DNA of 64,000 nucleotides from Mobula hypostoma (lineage: Eukaryota), in assembly GCF_963921235.1 (NCBI RefSeq), contig NC_086107.1, forward strand, positions 114,826,001 through 114,890,000. The letters are read 5' to 3'. The position numbers were made by a program, and so were the translations under genes. Position 1 is the stretch's first letter. Each line of letters begins with the position of its first letter. Positions 1 to 64,000 of this stretch are shown piece after piece. The notes under the pieces were generated by a model. It did not search any database. It was not told the DNA's origin and worked only from the letters and a program-made list of their open reading frames with translations.

Positions 1-1029
1 ACATCATATCCCAGCTTCTCATATTTTACCCCCTCTTCCCCCCTCACCTAGTCTCATCTATCACTTGCCATGTGGTACTCCCCCTACCTTCTTATTCTGG
101 CTTCTGCTCCTTCCTTTCCAGTCCTGGTGAAGGATTTCAGCTTGAAAAATAGTCTTGTTTATTTCCCCTCCATGCCCGCTCTGCTGAGTTCCTTCTTTGT
201 CTTATGTGTGTGGCTCGGGATTTCTAGCATCTGCAGAATCTCTGGGGTGATGCTTCAGGTTCTTATATCCTTGGTCAGAGCTCGGCTGGAGGTTGATGCA
301 GTTCTGGATGTTGCTCTACAGGAAGGGTATGATGGCCTTGGAGAGGGAGGATGAACCAAAATCATAAACTGGTAGAGCACAGAAATGGGCCTTTCTGCCT
401 TCTGTTTTTACTTATCATGATGCCAAATACCATTTCTTATTGATGCACCATAGAATCATGGAAACTAGTGTCCTCTCCATCCACTGTCTACACTTCCTGC
501 TGACTCAGTAGGCAGCCGGCATAATCAAAGACCCAGACATTCTCTCTTCACCCCTCTCCCATCAGGCAGAAGATACAAACGCCTGAAAGCGTGCGTCTGT
601 CCCACTGATATCAAAGGTCTGGAACAGACACTCAGTACGATGAGATGGAGGTTTGATTTCTCAGATGACCTCATTATGATCTTGTTGTTTATTGTTTACA
701 CTCTCTGTAGCTATTACACTTTGTTCTGCATTCTTCGGTTCTACCTTAATACACCAATGAATTGATTTCCTTGACAGAATGCATGACAAACTTTTGACTG
801 TACCTTGGTACAGCTGAAGATAATAAACCAATCTTACATCTTTCCATTCTCTGTTTGGTTATTTGCATATTTAATTGACTATTGTATCTGCTTCCCATTA
901 TAGTCTGTTCCAGACACCAACCACAGGCCCCTCTCTCATTCTAAACCTCTGCCCTCTAGTATTTCATATTTTCACCCTGAAGAAACAGGCTGTAATTATC
1001 TGACTCATCTATATATAAGTTTCTGTCAG

Positions 1030-1184
1030 GCCTCCTCAGAGCGATTGGGGGGGTGGGGGAGAGGGAAGTACATAGGAAGGGAGGGTGAAATGATCATGTG
1101 GAGAGAGGAGGGAGGGAGGCACATGCGCAGAGGAAGGACGCCACGTGCAGCGGGGTGGGGGGGAGAAGAGGCATGCGCAGACAG
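1030..1184 (+). CDS. SRCAP: Candidate upstream SRCAP exon with in-frame ATGs at 1090, 1096 and 1123 (MIMWREEGGRHMRRGRTPRAAGWGGEEACADR)
   Basis: Branch-like CTGAC at 1000, acceptor ttctgtcag|G at 1029/1030, donor CAG|GTACAT at 1184; phase joins in frame to exon 5969-6042. Confidence 0.55.
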
Positions 1185-2089
1185 GTACATTGTCGATGGT
1201 TTGGGTAGCGCCCAGCTCTGGCACTGTCCACTGCTCCATGCTGCCAACTGTGTAAAACTGAGGAAACAGGCTGAAAAGCCAAATGTTAATGCACTGGTTC
1301 AGCAAACGATCAGGAGGGCAAAAGAGAGAATGATTTAGTCTTCCTTTAATTTTGTTTACAATAGTTTTAATTTATTTCCTGAATCCTGAAAGCCTGATGG
1401 ATTTTTTTTTTGATTTGCAATTGTAAGATATGGTGGACGATTTTGGATTCCTTAGGTGAGAAGAGGTGAAGGATGTTTACAAGGTTATTTTTTTAATGGA
1501 GTGGTGAGTGCTTGGACTCTGTTGCCAAAGGGGGTGATGGAAGCAGATACAATAGAGATGTTTATGATAGAAGGGCCTGTTCTGGTATGGGGTTTACATT
1601 GCCACACGTACGGATATACAGTTCATGCAGATCAGATCATTGCGCATTGCATTGAGGTAGAATAGGGTAAAATAGTAGCAGAGCGCAGAGAAAGTACAGT
1701 GCAGTTAAACAAAAGGGTCCAGGATCCTAACTGATGGAGGTCAAGTGATAGGTTAAGGGTACATCTTATCGTACTCTGCAACAGTGAGGTGGATGCTGTC
1801 CGTGAGTCTGGTTGTATGAGTTTTCCAGAATGCAATACTGTGGATGCAGCCTACCCAGATTTCTGGATTTGGAATTGGTTTATTATTGTCCGTGAACCGA
1901 GATACAGTGCAAAACTTGTCTTGCATACTGTTCGTACAGATCAATTCATTGCACAGTGCATGGTAAAAATTCAAAGTAAATTTATTATCAAAGACATATG
2001 TGTCACCAAATACACCCTGAGATTCATTTTCTTTCAGGCATATTCAATAAATCCATATTAGAATAATAACCTTAATAGAATCAATGAAA

Positions 2090-3400
2090 AACAAGAGAAA
2101 ATCTTCAGATGCTGGAAATCCAAGCAAAAGACACAAAATGCTGGAGAAACTCAGCAGGCCAGTTAGCATCTATGCAAAAGAATATAGCCTACGTGTCTGG
2201 CTGAGACTCTTCAGCAGAACTGGAGAAAATAAAGCTGAGGACTAGATTTAAAAGGTGGGGGGAGGGGAGAGAGAAACACAAGGTTATAGGTGAAACCTGA
2301 AGGGGGAGGGATGAAGTAAGGAGCTGGGAAATTGATTGGTAGCTCTGTCTCTGGAGACAGCTTATCTACTGATGTCTGTTACAAGCCTATGAAATCTTCA
2401 AAGCAATCTGGACTATACCTCCTCCCACCCTGTTACTTGCAAAAACACCATCCCCTTTTCTGAATTCCTCTGTCTCCACTGCAGCTGCTCTCAGGATTAG
2501 GCTTTTCATTCCAGAACGAATGAGATGTCCTCCTTCAAACAAAGGGGCTTCTCTTCCTCCACCATCAATGCTGACTTCAACTGCATTTCTTCCATTTCAC
2601 ACACGTCTGCTCTTAACCTATCCACCTGCCACCCTACCAGGGACAGGGTTTGTCTTGTCCTCACTGACCACCCCACCAACCTCCACGTCCTGCAATTTCC
2701 ACCATTTCCAATGAGATCCCACCACCAAGCACATCTTTCCCACCTCCCTCATCCCTTTCTGCTTTCCGCAGGGATTGTTCCCTACGCAATTCCCTTGTCT
2801 GTACGTCCCTCCCCACTGATCTCCCTCCTGTCACTTATCCTTGCAAGTGGAACAAGTGCTACACCTGCCCCTACACTTCTGCCCTCACTGCCATTTAGGG
2901 CCCCAAACTGTTCTTCCAGGTAAGGCAACATGTCACCTGTTAGTCTGATGACGTATTATACTGTGTCCAGTGCTCCTGGTGTGGCTTCCTGCATATTGGT
3001 GAGACCCGATGTAGATTGGGAGACCGTTTCGCCAAGCACTTACACTCCATCTGCCAGAAAAAGCAGGATCTCCCAGTGGCCACCCATTTTAAATACATTT
3101 CCCATTCCCATTCCGGTATGTCTATCCATGGCCTCCTCCACTTTCGCGATGAGGCCACTCTGAAGTTAGAGGAACAACACTTTGTATTCTGTCTGGATAG
3201 CCTCCAACCTGATGGTATGAACATTGACTTCTTGAACATCCGGTAATGCCCCCACCCTTTCACCATTCCCCATTCCCTTTTCCTTCTCTTGCTTTATCTC
3301 CTTGCCGCCCATTGCCTCCCTCTGGTGCTCCTCCCCCCTTTTCTTTCTTGCATGGCCTTTTGCCCATCAGACTCCCCCCTTCTCCTGCCCTGTATCTCTT
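2090..3400 (+). mobile_element. Penelope-like retroelement remnant (GIY-YIG endonuclease C-terminus) with an inverted terminal segment
   Basis: Reads CGFLHIGETRCRLGDRF...PVATHF...LEEQHFVFCLDSLQPDGMN; 2090-2340 is the inverted complement of the element tail. Confidence 0.8.
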
Positions 3401-3419
3401 CCACTAATCGATGAAAAAC

Positions 3420-4330
3420 CACACCAACTTGGACATTCTGTCAGTGTGCAAAAGACAGCAAACTGCAAATATCAAAAGAAAGAAATAATAATAAATATAT
3501 AAGCAATAAATATGAACAACCTGGAATGAAGAGAGTTCTTGAAAGTGAGTCCGTTTGTTGTGGGAGCATTTCCATAATAGGGCAAATGAAATTGAGAGAA
3601 GTTAACACGAGGAAATCTGCAGATGCTGGAATTTCAAGCAACACACATCAAAGTTGCTGGTGAACGCAGCAGGCCAGGCAGCATCTCTAGGAAGAGGTAC
3701 CGTTGACGATTTGGGCCGAGACCCTTCGTCAGGACTAACTGAAAGAAAAGCTAGTAAGAGATTTGAAAGTGGGAGGAGGAGGCCCTTCCCCTCCCACTTT
3801 CAAATCTCTTACTAGCTCTTCTTTCAGTGCTCAATGGTGGGGAGGGTTTTAGCTGTGATGAACTGCTTTTTGTAGGATTTTCCATTGAAGGACATCAGTG
3901 TTTCCATTCCAGGCTGTGGTTTGATGCAGCCAGTCAGTATACTATCAACCATACATCTGTAGAAGTTCACCAAAGATTTAAGTATCGTGCTGAATCTTTG
4001 CAAACTCCTGAGTAGAGACGCTGCTGTGCTTTCTTCATAATTGCACTAGGATACGATCTCCAAAATGATAACACTGAGGAATTTAAAATTGCTGACCCTC
4101 TCCACCTCTGATCCGCTAATGAAGACTGGCTCATGGACCTCTGGTTTCCTCCCTCTGAAGTCAATCATCAGCACCTTGGTCTTCCTGACAGTGAGTGAGA
4201 GGCTTTTGTGGCACCATTCATCCAGATTTGCAATCTCTTTCTCATAAGCTGAGTTGCCACCACCTTTGATTCGCCCTGTGACAGTGGTGCTGTCAGCAAA
4301 TTTGAAAACAAGTGGTGTCAGCAAACATGT
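3420..4330 (-). mobile_element. Rex/Babar-like LINE remnant interrupted by a Penelope-type terminal piece at 3604-3827
   Basis: KFADSTTVTGRI...WCH..LSLTVRKTKVLMIDFR RT C-terminal peptide. Confidence 0.7.
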
Positions 4331-4839
4331 ACAAAACAATAGCATTATGTAGAATAAAGTGTTACAGTACAGGTAGGCAATAAGATGCAAGGTCTGTAAT
4401 GAGGTAGGTTCTGAGTTTGTCTGTCTTAGCAGACTAGTAAACTGTTCAATAATCTTACAATGGTATTAAGGGTAGAACCTTGAGCATGGTGGGATGTGCT
4501 TTCAGGCTTTTGTATCTTCTACTCAATGAGAGGGGGAGAAGAGAGACTGGGGTAGGTGGGGTCATTGATTATGCTGGCTTCTCTCATGTAGACATTGTTC
4601 AGCGCAACTCTGCAGATAGTAGGAGAGATTGTGTAAACTAGGATTGAATTATTTGGAATCTCGGAGTGCAAGCGTAAGTTACTGTGTATTCATTTTTATT
4701 TATGGCCCATTCCTAACTGCTGCTTGACAAGTTGAGGTCCAGTTCTTATCTTGAGCCACCGGATGAGCGGTTGGGGGGGGGGGGGTGTCAGGAATGCGAA
4801 TGAACAGGGCTCAGGCAGCAATAAGCAGTCTGTTGGTGA

Positions 4840-5600
4840 ATCAGAAACAGGTTTAATATTACAAAGTTGTACGATTTGCAGTTTGTTGTTTTGCAGTAGC
4901 AATACATTGTAAAGTATTGCATTAGTGTAAAGTAAAATGTAACTAATGCAGAAAGAAAGGAATAGTGAGGTAGTGTTCGTGGACTGTAAAGAAATCTGAT
5001 GGTAGTGGGGAAGAATTGTTGAGTGTGGGTTTCGGGCTGTACCTCCCCAATGGTAATAAGAGGGCATGTCCTGGATGGTGAGGGTTGTCAGCCTCCTGAA
5101 AGTGTCCTTGATGTGGGGATGGTTGTGCCCATAATGTAGTGGCTGAGTACAACACTCTGCAGACTCTTGCGATCAATACCAGACAGTGATACAGCCAGTC
5201 AGAATGTCTCCATGTGTATCTCTAGAAATTTGCCAGAGTCTGTGGTGACATACCAAATCTTCTCAAGCTTCTAATGAAGTATGGCTGTTGGAGTACCTTC
5301 TTCCTAACTGCATCAATATGATGGGCTCAGGGTAGATCCTCTGAGATGTTGACACTCGGGAATTTGAAGCTGCTCACCCTTTCCGCTGCTGACCACTCGA
5401 CCAGGACTGGGATGTGTTCCCCTGACTCCTCTTTCCTGAAGTCCACAGTCATTTCTGTGGCTTTGCTGACAGAGTGCGAGGTTGCTGTCATGACATCTCA
5501 ACGAGCATATATCTCACTCCTGTATGCCTCCTCATTGCCCTTTGAGTTTCTGCCAACAACAGTGGTGTTATTGGTGAACTTACAGATGGAGTTTGAGCCA
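4840..5600 (-). mobile_element. Rex/Babar-like LINE 3' remnant
   Basis: Homologous to 3830-4330 and 59400-60790; frameshifted. Confidence 0.65.
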
Positions 5601-5968
5601 CCCCTCTGAGAGCTCAGCAGCTGGAACAGTCCCCGCAGGAAGAAGGACAGGATCCGCTGACCTCTGGTACCCCTGGGTTAGGACTGTGGGCAGAGGAGTA
5701 TGGACAGGCAAGACTGTCAGTACAGACAGATTGACGGAAGGGCCTATTTTTGCACTCTTTATCTCTGACTCCAAGGACAGTTATAATAAAAAGCTCTGGG
5801 TGGGATGGGATGTGCATGCTGTCATTCATCCTGACAGAAGAGGAGTATTACGTTTGGCTGAGCCGGCTGTCTGAAAAAGCTATTTAGATCTTCGCGGAGC
5901 CCAGTTTAACCACTGCTGCTTGTTTCTTCTCCTCTCCCTCCTCCCCTTTCTCCTCTCCCCAACAACAG

Positions 5969-6042
5969 GACCGGTGTTGCAACTTCAACCAACACCGTGG
6001 AAGGATACACTGAGGGAAACGGGGATACTGCACAGCACCCAG
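5969..6042 (+). CDS. SRCAP: SRCAP upstream exon, 74 nt (TGVATSTNTVEGYTEGNGDTAQHP)
   Basis: Long pyrimidine tract plus CAG acceptor, CAG|GTACTT donor, stop-free in the SRCAP frame. Confidence 0.75.
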
Positions 6043-6454
6043 GTACTTGGGAGTGGAGTGAAACTAGGGGTGTGGAGGGAGTCTTTGGGACACTGTCAAG
6101 AGAGCTTCATCCTGTGTCTGATCCTGGGAGTGTGTTATGCGATGGTGTGGGGGGAGCTTGACTCCATGTCTGATCCCGGGTGTGTGCGATGGGATGGCAC
6201 TAAGGGAACTTCTGCCTGTGTTTAACCCTGTCCCTCTACTTCTCCCCCCGCCCCCATACATAGGCGTGGTGTTACTCAACTGTGTGGAACGGACGCTGGG
6301 TCAGCAGGGGACCCAGGACGTGGACGCCTCATCTGGCAGGCCGACTTTCCAGAATGTGTTCAGCACCGAGCATGCCCTGCAGCAGCTACCCAACAGCTTG
6401 GCCGTTCTGGAGCGCCCTGAGTGTGTCTACGTCACCAGCAGAGGAGGCTGCAAG

Positions 6455-53211
<46,757 letters not shown>

Positions 53212-62051: not shown

Positions 62052-63486
62052 ACTGAAGGAAGAGCGAGTAAGACATTCTGTACCCCTTCCTAGAGATGCT
62101 GCCTGGCCTGCTGCGTTCACCAGCAACTTTTATGTGTGTAACTTGTGAGGCCTCAGTGGGGGAGGGACTAGATACCAGAAAGGTCGGAGCGGCTCATGAA
62201 CCCGTCTGTAATTACAGTCTTGATTACGGGTCTGGGCCCGAAACGTCGACTTTTTACTCATTTCCGTAGATGCTGCCTGGCCTGCTGAGTTCCTCCAGCA
62301 TTTTGTGTGTATTACCATGCTGAAGGATATCTCAGCTTGAGAAGACGGACCGCCATCCAAAAAGCAGCAGCGTGTCGGAAGGTGGGGTGGATGGAGTCTG
62401 CCTGTCTGCTGGGGTAAAGGTGTTGGAGAGGGGCGTATACGGGAGCGAGGTCACGTTACACACTCCCTCCGCACCGTCCCGTCACGCACAATATTTCTAA
62501 ACATTTTCCCAGAAAATTACATTGAAAGCATAGAACCGTATTTACTAATTATTGCAATCGTTAATCAAATTTCCAACATGAATATAATTTCAAAATTTAT
62601 ATACAATAAGCATAATTCCGTTTTGTAACTGCATTACAATCGATGCTTTTTCTCCCTGGATCCCATAGGCGCTACCCTATGTCACTCCCACCCAGCACTC
62701 AGTAGTACACTGGTTCCATGGATGAGGGAGCCCTTGGCCAGCCCGAGGACTAAGACTCCCTGGTGATGAGACTGCCGGTGGGAGGGAGGTTCTTACTGCT
62801 CAGACCCCTCCTGTATCAATCGTCGCCCTGTACACGCTCCCCCTCCACCGATCTCCCTGTCTCTACACCACTGCCGTCTCCGTGACCTCCTCCCTCTCCA
62901 TTCCTCAAGCCCCTACGACTCTCCCCGTTCCAATGACCACCTCCCTCCCCGTCTCCGTGATGGTCTCCCTTCCCTAAACACCTCTCCAACTCTGACACCC
63001 TTCCCCGATTCCGTGACCCCTTTCCTCACCGTCTCTGTAATCACACCACCTTGACTCTGAGACCCACTTGCATCCGTACACCCTCCTCATCTCCGAGATC
63101 ACCATAGACTTCCAGCCCCGTTTCCTTCGACCAGTTTTAACTTCCATCGCTCCTCCATCAGTTGCCTTGCCTTCTTTGCTCGGGTCTTCCCACCCACCCT
63201 CTCCTCCCACCTCCCATACCAGGGGCAGTGGGGACCCAGGAATACACGAGCTGATCTGTCCAGGAGAAGGCTAGCAAACACTTGTGGGATGAAGGGTCTT
63301 CAGCACGTGGTCCTTCAGTAAATCCATTTGGGCCAGCGAGCACCCGTTTGTTTTATTCTCCATCCCAACATCCTTCGGCCAAACAGTGGCCAACTCACCC
63401 ACCAACGTGGCTGGACGTCATGTTGCAGTCGCAGAAGCAGCATTTGGGAATATTCTGTGCAGTTCCCGTTCCCCCGGCTGGATGAA

Positions 63487-63790
63487 CAGACGCCTGGGAG
63501 TACGGGACAGACGCCTGGGAGCACGGGACAGACCCCTGGGAGCACGGGACAGACGCCTGGGAGCACGGGACAGACCCCTGGGAGCACGGGACAGACGCCT
63601 GGGAGTACGGGACAGACCCCTGGGAGCACGGGACAGACGCCTGGGAGTACGGGACAGACCCCTGGGAGCACGGGACAGACGCCAGGGAGCACGGGGCAGA
63701 CGCCTGGGAGCACGGGGCAGACCCCTGGGAGTACGGGACAGACGCCTGGGAGCACGGGACAGACACCTGGGAGCACGGGGCAGACGCCTG
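63487..63790. repeat. 21-bp minisatellite CAGACGCCTGGGAGCACGGGA, about 14 copies
   Basis: Read directly. Confidence 0.97.
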
Positions 63791-64000
63791 GCCACGGGGA
63801 GACAGAGCAATGATGCTGTTGTTTGACACATTGGCCTTCAGCTGTGGGGGCACTGAGTACAGGAGTTGGGACGTCCCGTTTCAGTTTCACAATTGGTGAG
63901 GCTGCTCGGTTCTGGTTATCCGGTTATTGAAAGGGTGGACTTAAACTGGAGAGGCGGCAGGAAAAGATTCTTCAGCAAGTAGTCTGGAGTGGGTAGTTGA

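Follow-up and report, generated by a model that had tools for sequence, protein, structure and literature searches.

We propose that SRCAP carries a vertebrate-wide, disordered N-terminal extension initiated at an ancient non-AUG start codon, a GUG, and put the probability of this reading at roughly 60%. In the Mobula hypostoma genome, the leader exons upstream of the AUG that matches the annotated SRCAP start contain an open, in-frame segment whose peptide is conserved across vertebrates, and the similarity begins at a GTG in good initiation context. SRCAP, and with it probably the human protein, may therefore begin upstream of the annotated start. SRCAP is an H2A.Z-depositing chromatin remodeller, and in humans it is a gene of disease, linked to Floating-Harbor syndrome and further neurodevelopmental disorders.

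Identity and layout of the SRCAP locus

We analysed a 64,000-nt stretch of the Mobula hypostoma genome (hereafter the window). Positions 8575–8790 match human SRCAP residues 102–165 with an E value of 4e-29, compared with a weaker 3e-19 for p400, and the HSA region, which resembles SRCAP more than EP400, is followed by split SNF2 ATPase exons; the exons of rat SRCAP map one after another onto window positions 8599 to 49791. The assignment of the gene to SRCAP in the original prediction is thus borne out. A single paralogous HSA locus elsewhere in the genome, 67% identical, is presumably EP400.

The mRNA probably reads, in order, a CpG-island exon 1 located upstream of the window, the 74-nt exon 2, exon 3 and exon 4 (Table 1), every splice junction named here for this species being deduced from sequence. 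Of 24 sequencing runs (11 coded organisms, 12 studies) listed as containing part of the region, none was listed as RNA, and they play no part in the argument. Homologues were found for both exons 2 and 3, which places them beyond chance. The original prediction had joined 1090–1184, 5969–6042 and 6264–6454, and its arithmetic is correct: the three pieces sum to 95 + 74 + 191 = 360 nt, contain no stop and share the frame of MQSSP (6455), each candidate donor has the form CAG/GTAC, which recurs at 6499, 17499, 22524 and 35980, and an ACC-GTG-G stands 79 codons 5′ of MQSSP, as it had noted.

Table 1 Features of the SRCAP leader region in the window
Feature	Position	Strand	Remarks
Cassette or first exon of the original prediction	1030..1184	+	In-frame ATGs at 1090, 1096 and 1123; unsupported
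Exon 2 of the leader, 74 nt	5969..6042	+	Carries the candidate start; phase 1 end splits H-P-G
Candidate GUG start, ACC-GTG-G	5994..6000	+	Codon 5997–5999; A at −3, G at +4
Exon 3	6264..6499	+	63 more in-frame codons, then the annotated start (MQSSP; first 15 residues)
Most conserved motif, Q-N-[VE]-x-x-S-x-[QE]-[HY]-A-L-[QE]	6350..6385	+	8 of 8 compared sequences
Two +1-frame AUGs, 6354 and 6372	6354..6374	+	Both with A at −3
AUG matching the annotated human, rat and shark SRCAP start (MQSSP / MQTNS)	6455..6457	+	
Exon 4, 3′ end approximate	7970..8330	+	Second conserved Met (MTGS) at 7991; poly-Ser tract at 8019–8133
Start of the SRCAP HSA region	8599..8790	+	E 4e-29 to human SRCAP 102–165

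An open frame conserved from cartilaginous fishes to mammals

An open in-frame segment 5′ of the annotated AUG was found in Mobula hypostoma, two sharks, a frog, a reptile-like record and ten mammalian forms. Its exon-3 part is kept in the shark, frog and reptile-like records (53% identity to whale shark, E 1e-16; 33 of 63 residues identical to bamboo shark; 43% identity to a Logan record), and the frame is open in frog and mammals. The mammalian set comprises 20 proteins in 10 distinct forms, all with an open frame of 84–85 codons from the GTG position. One mammalian ORF that carries the extension, P0043, is identical to human SRCAP over residues 1–258 (258/258); against it, the extensions of nine mammalian forms are 72/83 to 81/84 identical, and their annotated first 100 residues 91–99/100. 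These data support the claim of the original prediction that exons 5969–6042 and 6264–6454 hold an ancient in-frame segment, and contradict its suggestion that mammals lost it. Annotation begins at MQ in RefSeq shark and rat models and in the human chain of the PDB; in the model of Carcharodon, exon 2 is read in the +1 frame and exon 3 is left out.

The motif at 6350..6385 was present in all eight sequences compared (Mobula hypostoma, two sharks, frog, reptile-like, mouse-like, human-identical and seal). It lies 33 codons from MQ in the frog, 35 in Mobula hypostoma, 36 in the sharks, 39 in the mouse-like sequence, and 34 or 40 in others; these six lengths differ by whole codons throughout, lending support to a constraint on the frame. 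Broken copies would have been invisible, because protein searches show open frames only. At 30% identity, simulated neutral evolution free of indels left the frame without a stop in about 5% of runs; the figure was 11–17% at 50% identity and 42–49% at 80%. No named teleost record of the extension was found, three of the protein searches having spanned proteins of at most 2000 aa, shorter than full-length SRCAP, and the similar teleost extension cited in the original prediction was thus not confirmed; a weak search with query P0001 against proteins of 138–2000 aa gave no match among 81 candidates, and a metagenome scan for DNA of relatives gave 45 pattern matches, none confirmed. The extension is predicted to be disordered (pLDDT 34–39). 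No Pfam family was found for it, the ESM Atlas gave nothing usable for the Mobula hypostoma exon or the mammalian extension, and a PDB search with P0001 returned only two C1q matches at chance level (E 1.1).

Similarity begins at a GTG in good context

Aligned from the threonine at −1 of the GTG to E-R-x-L-G, the Mobula hypostoma and seal peptides are gap-free and identical at 11 of 29 positions, and upstream of that threonine at 0 of 8; none of 20,000 shuffles matched this alignment, a count that is optimistic because the anchor was picked by eye. The two share the pattern T-V-E ... H-[PT]-G ... E-R-x-L-G, and the spacing from T-V-E to H-[PT]-G is kept in the seal, mole-rat and bird models. 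The bird model (Pseudopodoces), found via its HSA region only at 22% coverage, keeps the exon-2 part with the T-V-E..H-T-G spacing and 6 of 17 identical residues, a result equalled by 64 of 20,000 shuffles. The Chiloscyllium punctatum model contains the TAQHPG junction, diverges 5′ of it and has no T-V-E, which is also missing from the frog model.

Outside Mobula hypostoma, the identity of the codon was read from protein. Logan ORFs have M at this position and the models of seal (XP_006738070.2) and mole-rat (KFO36312.1) have V, within G-T-V-E; a GTG following ACN is therefore indicated in mammals. Exon 2 matches the Carcharodon RefSeq model at 69% in the +1 frame (E 6e-8), and there the peptide P-W-K forces CC-NTG-GAA at the same spot. 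In Mobula hypostoma, where the codon is seen in the DNA itself, a near-cognate codon in good context stands at the edge of conservation, and GTG 5997 is, as the original prediction had offered as an alternative, the best start candidate, in this species as in mammals. No stable hairpin was found 3′ of the GUG in four windows (z −0.2 to +1.4).

The least probable of the readings that we weighed is that the extension is translated from some other near-cognate codon, either upstream in exon 1 or at a GTG, CTG or ACG downstream in exon 3. The frame is open through the whole of exon 1 in Mobula hypostoma and over 195 codons in the seal model, the 360-nt join contains 13 in-frame near-cognate codons, and among the Logan ORFs three begin two codons later and two begin 42 codons before MQSSP. 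Yet T-V-E marks the start of similarity, only 5997 among the listed near-cognates of exons 2 and 3 combines A at −3 with G at +4 as ACC-NTG-G, and the late Logan starts may reflect choices of the gene caller or truncated contigs.

The candidate first exon at 1030–1184

In the model of the original prediction, 1030–1184 provides the AUG of a 120-residue extension. It would be spliced in either as a cassette or as the first exon, and the conserved segment would then have gained an AUG by capture in this lineage alone. We consider this improbable. The sequence is single-copy in the genome and has an acceptor (TCAG/G), a CAG/GTAC donor, an open frame and three in-frame ATGs, and some of the extensions described by Ivanov et al. 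are AUG-initiated in certain species (section 12; PMC3105428). However, none of seven N-termini run against window positions 1–9000 gave a credible match to it, and the RefSeq models of two sharks begin at MQTNS. Nor do its features exceed chance, since within the 22,051-nt leader-intron interval from the CpG-island donor to window position 5900 4 of 30 VAG/GTR sites are preceded, at a distance of 20 codons or more, by an ATG in frame, and CAG/GTAC occurs three times. As an argument for the exon, this donor form is weak: the window has 10 copies on the plus strand and 3 on the minus strand, and the one at 32688 falls within an exon match.

The position of the CpG island also speaks against this exon. 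The region of 1030–1184 is no CpG island (observed/expected 0.32 at 801–1200), whereas 16.2 kb before the window there is one of housekeeping type that has a donor of its own. With the exon of this island joined to 5969, the frame is open through exon 1 and, traced back as far as a genomic stop, contains no AUG; the number of in-frame AUGs 5′ of MQSSP is thus zero with the CpG-island exon spliced in and three with 1030–1184 included. We looked for another gene between the island and exon 2 and saw none, the ORF matches being only of retroelement type, ALKBH8_N and GDSL; the upstream scan covered 56 of 120 ORFs, among them every one of the 45 within the nearest 30 kb.

Two out-of-frame AUGs and a model for initiation

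The AUGs at 6354 and 6372, both lying beneath the most conserved motif and neither with G at +4, open +1-frame ORFs of 56 and 50 codons that overlap MQSSP and end at a TGA overlapping the MTGS ATG (AUGA). The leader thus has the overlapping-uORF layout of EIF4G2, whose start codon is GUG, and of R3HCC1 (CUG), in which a non-AUG start is likewise followed by out-of-frame AUGs. The SRCAP leader differs from these in having only two such AUGs, with A at −3 and without G at +4, and in the conservation of its MQSSP and MTGS AUGs.

These features suggest the following course of GUG initiation. Scanning 43S complexes would pass a 9-codon uORF located in the CpG-island exon 1, and a fraction would initiate at the GUG of ACC-GUG-G, giving SRCAP with a disordered extension of 79 residues in Mobula hypostoma and 84–85 in mammals. 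Complexes leaking past the GUG would meet the two out-of-frame AUGs before MQSSP, and since the ORF that these open overlaps MQSSP and ends on the MTGS AUGA, initiation at MQSSP is proposed to be reduced. The extended protein may account for a sizeable share of the product or even be its main form, in an amount that would be set by start-codon stringency. Conservation extends to the AUGs of MQSSP and MTGS, so that several forms probably coexist.

The same AUGs lend themselves to another explanation, which we regard as unlikely but as a serious competitor: exons 2 and 3 may be a regulatory 5′ leader conserved as nucleotides (the two AUGs of overlapping uORFs, splice signals and perhaps some RNA element), the open main frame being a by-product with little or no extended protein, and leaky scanning or reinitiation bringing translation to MQSSP or MTGS. 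The core motif agrees with the patterns xAG-AAT-G and xAG-yAT-G, and would be largely explained by the two AUGs with their −3 A, as the variable Q/E and H/Y positions would touch only bases outside the AUG context. The peptides are compatible with the two AUGs being kept in other species. Given the protein and the codon usage of Mobula hypostoma, the probability of finding both AUGs is 0.066 and that of an open +1 frame 0.097. An indirect test on exon 2 gives no coding signature: of the differences forced relative to Carcharodon, 2 are in position 1 of the codon, 3 in position 2 and 3 in position 3, with no third-position bias; in mammalian codons 47–85, changes lean to position 1, the wobble position of the +1 frame (9 versus 6, not significant); and SRCAP is missing from the non-AUG catalogues searched. 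However, a conserved leader leaves unexplained the T-V-E, H-[PT]-G and E-R-x-L-G elements, the whole-codon spacing over the 44–45 codons 5′ of the first out-of-frame AUG, and a start of similarity exactly at a GTG with A at −3 and G at +4. In mammalian codons 1–46, moreover, the number of changes at position 2 (6) is no lower than at position 1 (4), which gives the +1 frame no preference in this part.

Possible consequences for the annotated protein and relation to known non-AUG starts

The annotated human SRCAP (3230 aa; PDB 6igm_H and 20 other entries) is orthologous and its start matches MQSSP at 6455; the deposited sequence is without the 85 upstream residues that are present in frame in the human-identical transcript ORF. 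Should GUG initiation yield the long form, both the reference protein and the sequence of the deposited structures would be 85 residues short, and variants in leader exons 2 and 3 would need to be re-read for frameshifts, loss of the GUG, and loss or gain of out-of-frame AUGs. The reading makes a precise prediction for existing TI-seq and proteomics data, namely a single codon together with the N-terminal peptide that it would define. As residue 25 is the first Arg of the 85-residue extension, a long tryptic peptide would be expected at the N-terminus. A bolder version, possible but rather doubtful in our view, would have the GUG as the main SRCAP start across jawed vertebrates and the two conserved out-of-frame AUGs shadowing the annotated one; the annotated human protein would then lack 85 N-terminal residues, exon 2–3 ‘5′UTR’ variants would be coding or start-altering, and the dose of this H2A.Z-depositing enzyme would be tuned by start-codon stringency (eIF1, eIF5, 5MP).

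SRCAP was absent from the published Ribo-seq, PhyloCSF and N-terminomics lists searched and from the main text of Ivanov et al. 2011 (PMC3105428), and a full-text literature search gave no paper on an upstream SRCAP start. The mechanism itself is already of a known kind. As in the class described by Ivanov et al., an open segment precedes the annotated AUG of SRCAP in frame, similarity begins at a near-cognate codon in good context, and the length of 79–85 codons is close to their mean of about 80 (PMC3105428). Non-AUG starts were kept across vertebrates in 10 of their 42 candidates, and the vertebrate-wide extensions include those of C1QL1-4, YPEL1/2/4, WDR26, VANGL2, TEAD1/3/4 and EIF4G2 (PMC3105428). 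SRCAP, conserved beyond mammals in the same way, would add a large chromatin enzyme to this short list.

HDGF offers a second point of comparison: as portrayed in the passages of that paper dealing with it, its GUG initiates a 50-residue extension, the codon is conserved along with its context, and long and short forms occur (PMC3105428). SRCAP shares the GUG in good context, and long and short forms are proposed for it as well. In those passages, HDGF is without an intervening out-of-frame AUG and is described as conserved in mammals, whereas the SRCAP segment reaches the cartilaginous fishes.

Gene identity and leader layout

By sequence similarity, the window carries SRCAP, a disease gene: one stretch matches human SRCAP residues 102–165 at E 4e-29 against 3e-19 for p400, rat and shark SRCAP map onto the window exon by exon, and one paralogous locus lies elsewhere in the genome. 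The nearest hits are to sharks, which suggests a cartilaginous fish, perhaps a ray. We find that peptide-level conservation that keeps the reading frame starts, in the leader of this gene, at a GTG with A at −3 and G at +4. The best reading, to which we assign a probability of roughly 0.6, is a vertebrate-wide, GUG-initiated SRCAP extension of 79–85 residues ahead of MQSSP, the annotated N-terminus. Between the GTG and MQSSP lie two AUGs in the +1 frame, whose ORF overlaps the MQSSP start and terminates on the ATGA of the second methionine (MTGS) in exon 4. No hairpin was found after the GUG, a point against GUG initiation.

Features of the SRCAP leader and its surroundings (window positions; L003 is a segment of the upstream sequence)
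Feature	Position	Remark
Nearest CpG island	L003:3500–4100	16.5 kb upstream of window
9-codon uORF	L003:3799–3828	16.2 kb upstream of window
Donor of CpG-island exon	L003:3849	CAG/GTAGGC
Candidate exon of the 120-aa form	1030–1184	
Two CATGCGCAG words	1115–1182	within candidate exon
Exon 2	5969–6042	
N-T-V-E codons	5991–6002	
Candidate GTG start	5997	237 nt before MQSSP
Exon 3	6264–6499	
+1 AUGs	6354, 6372	101 and 83 nt before MQSSP; A at −3 in both
ATG of MQSSP	6455	
Exon 4	7970–	
ATG of MTGS	7991	
(CCT)n array	8019–8133	about 38 units, exon 4
Match to human SRCAP	8575–8790	
21-nt tandem repeat	63293–63896	downstream of SRCAP
CAG/GTAC, gene strand	1184, 6042, 6499, 17499, 22524, 32688, 35980, 44783, 46600, 60731	

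Conservation of the putative extension

Exon 3 has only two matches in 1.84 billion representatives, one to a model from whale shark (53%, E 1e-16), the other to a Logan record (43%, E 1e-4), and the Chiloscyllium punctatum model has the same exon 2/3 junction, TAQHPG. Translated in its +1 frame, exon 2 is 69% identical to the RefSeq model from Carcharodon; the forced differences number 2/3/3 across codon positions, a spread that tells against the coding reading.

One protein search gave 16 proteins (7 beginning MQ, 2 MTG, 1 partial, 2 with unrelated leaders), the informative four being a rat-like Logan ORF, Carcharodon, Pseudopodoces and Pelobates; further searches enlarged the set. An open frame of 84–85 codons beginning M/V-E-V-Q-T is present in 20 mammalian proteins of 10 distinct forms; beyond these, the start falls two codons later in three proteins, 42 codons ahead of MQSSP in two, and at MQSSP itself in one Logan member. 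One form agrees with human SRCAP 1–258 at every position (258/258 residues), and the other nine match it at 72/83 to 81/84 positions in the extension and at 91–99/100 in the annotated first 100 residues. Because the seal and mole-rat models, which read through, have G-T-V-E at the extension's first residue, a GTG preceded by ACN is the simplest explanation for the M with which the Logan ORFs begin; the sequence here encodes N-T-V-E. Aligned without gaps from T to E-R-x-L-G, fish and seal share 11/29 residues (0/20,000 shuffles), and 7/17 in exon 2 only (4/20,000), shuffle counts that are optimistic because the alignment anchor was chosen by eye. For exon 2 of Pseudopodoces, a bird sequence retrieved through its HSA region alone and whose MTGSSP join is a less reliable gene model, the figures are 6/17 and 64/20,000, the latter optimistic for the same reason. 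Upstream of T, fish and seal share 0/8 residues. T-V-E is absent from the C. punctatum and frog models, which tells against the extension. Initiation of the extension at another near-cognate codon is improbable.

The main rival, a uORF leader conserved at the nucleotide level, is possible at rather long odds. The best motif, Q-N-V/E..A-L-Q/E, lies over the two +1 AUGs and is open to interpretation as a pair of conserved AUG contexts; the frog model has it in frame (Q-N-E..Q-H-A-L-Q), and its distances to MQ are 33, 34, 35, 36, 39 and 40 codons. When substitution was simulated as neutral, with no indels, about 5% of runs kept an open frame at fish–mammal divergence and 11–17% did so at 50% identity, an argument that is conditional because protein searches cannot reveal broken copies. 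No teleost record was found in our searches, three of which covered proteins up to 2000 aa; this too tells against a vertebrate-wide extension.

MQSSP is absent from all five bird SRCAP models (P0015–P0019), which begin at or read through MTGSSP. Exon 3 seems to be lost or much reduced in birds, with one model retaining the T-V-E..H-T-G part of exon 2. The (CCT)n array encodes a long poly-Ser tract missing from the models of bamboo shark and great white, and by this comparison a lineage-specific expansion.

The predicted 120-aa form and the likely first exon

The original prediction joined 1090–1184, 5969–6042 and 6264–6454 into a 120-aa, AUG-started extension, with the GTG as an alternative start. 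The three pieces do total 360 nt without a stop, in frame with MQSSP; the donors and GTG are as described, and exons 2 and 3 have homologues. Exon 1030–1184 gained no such support, with no match among the seven N-termini tested. It is single-copy in the genome and lies outside any CpG island. Of the 30 donor-like sites of the 22-kb intron, 4, its own included, are preceded in frame by an ATG at a distance of 20 codons or more. The original observation is borne out in part, and so is its interpretation: the GUG alternative stands as the best reading and the AUG form is unlikely. The CATGCGCAG words, which we take to resemble NRF1 sites, are the sole matches to the search pattern in 89 kb, and this element may act as an enhancer or a minor promoter and not as coding sequence. 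CAG/GTAC occurs ten times on the gene strand and three times on the opposite strand of the window; several of these sites are exon ends, and 32688 is inside an exon match.

The CpG island contains TCTCGCGA, CCGCCATTTT and ACTACATTTCCC, presumably housekeeping-promoter motifs, and its exon is likely the first of SRCAP, with a putative splice to exon 2. No other gene was found between them among 56 of 120 upstream ORFs scanned, including all 45 of the nearest 30 kb. Given this splice, reading upstream from MQSSP through exons 3 and 2 and the CpG-island exon meets a genomic stop before any in-frame AUG, and the leader would include the 9-codon uORF. This uORF begins M-V, as does the Carcharodon RefSeq model, which reads exon 2 in the +1 frame and, skipping exon 3, joins exon 4. 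That model tells against the main-frame extension, and sharks may thus have another way of making a long product. The seal model has G-H-F about 156 nt ahead of the presumed junction, which could, on a weak likeness, be the CATTTTG word present here (185 nt in this fish). In the mole-rat model SRCAP is fused with an Auts2-domain gene lying upstream, for which the 80 kb preceding the window (L002–L009) gave no match. Several further CpG-rich blocks lie 35–77 kb upstream.

Proposed mechanism and earlier catalogues

With GUG initiation, some scanning ribosomes would start at the GUG and yield long SRCAP, and those leaking past would be partly caught by the two +1 AUGs, reducing initiation at MQSSP; reinitiation at MTGS would be possible. 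The same layout is described in the main text of Ivanov 2011 (PMC3105428) for EIF4G2, R3HCC1 and half of 42 candidates. The extension is predicted to be disordered (pLDDT 34–39, 14-row alignment), as are the annotated first 170 residues of SRCAP. Any function it has would lie in a short linear motif, or in altered stability or dose, rather than in a domain. The GUG start is testable with existing data.

Listings and abstract openings from full-text literature searches held nothing on an upstream SRCAP start. SRCAP is absent from the main text of Ivanov 2011, 12 of 13 supplement files and main-text passages of Fedorova 2022 (PMC9789052), its addendum file (PMC10764858), the PMC11317171 supplement, the PMC5749180 supplements other than file 1 and one small file of PMC5701008. 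This absence is weak evidence because the Fedorova 2022 pipeline gives even the known extension of TRPV6 a PhyloCSF of −1512; the SRCAP upstream start may have been noticed before in print. At the far end of the window, the 21-nt tandem repeat gives rise to repetitive ORFs in three frames.
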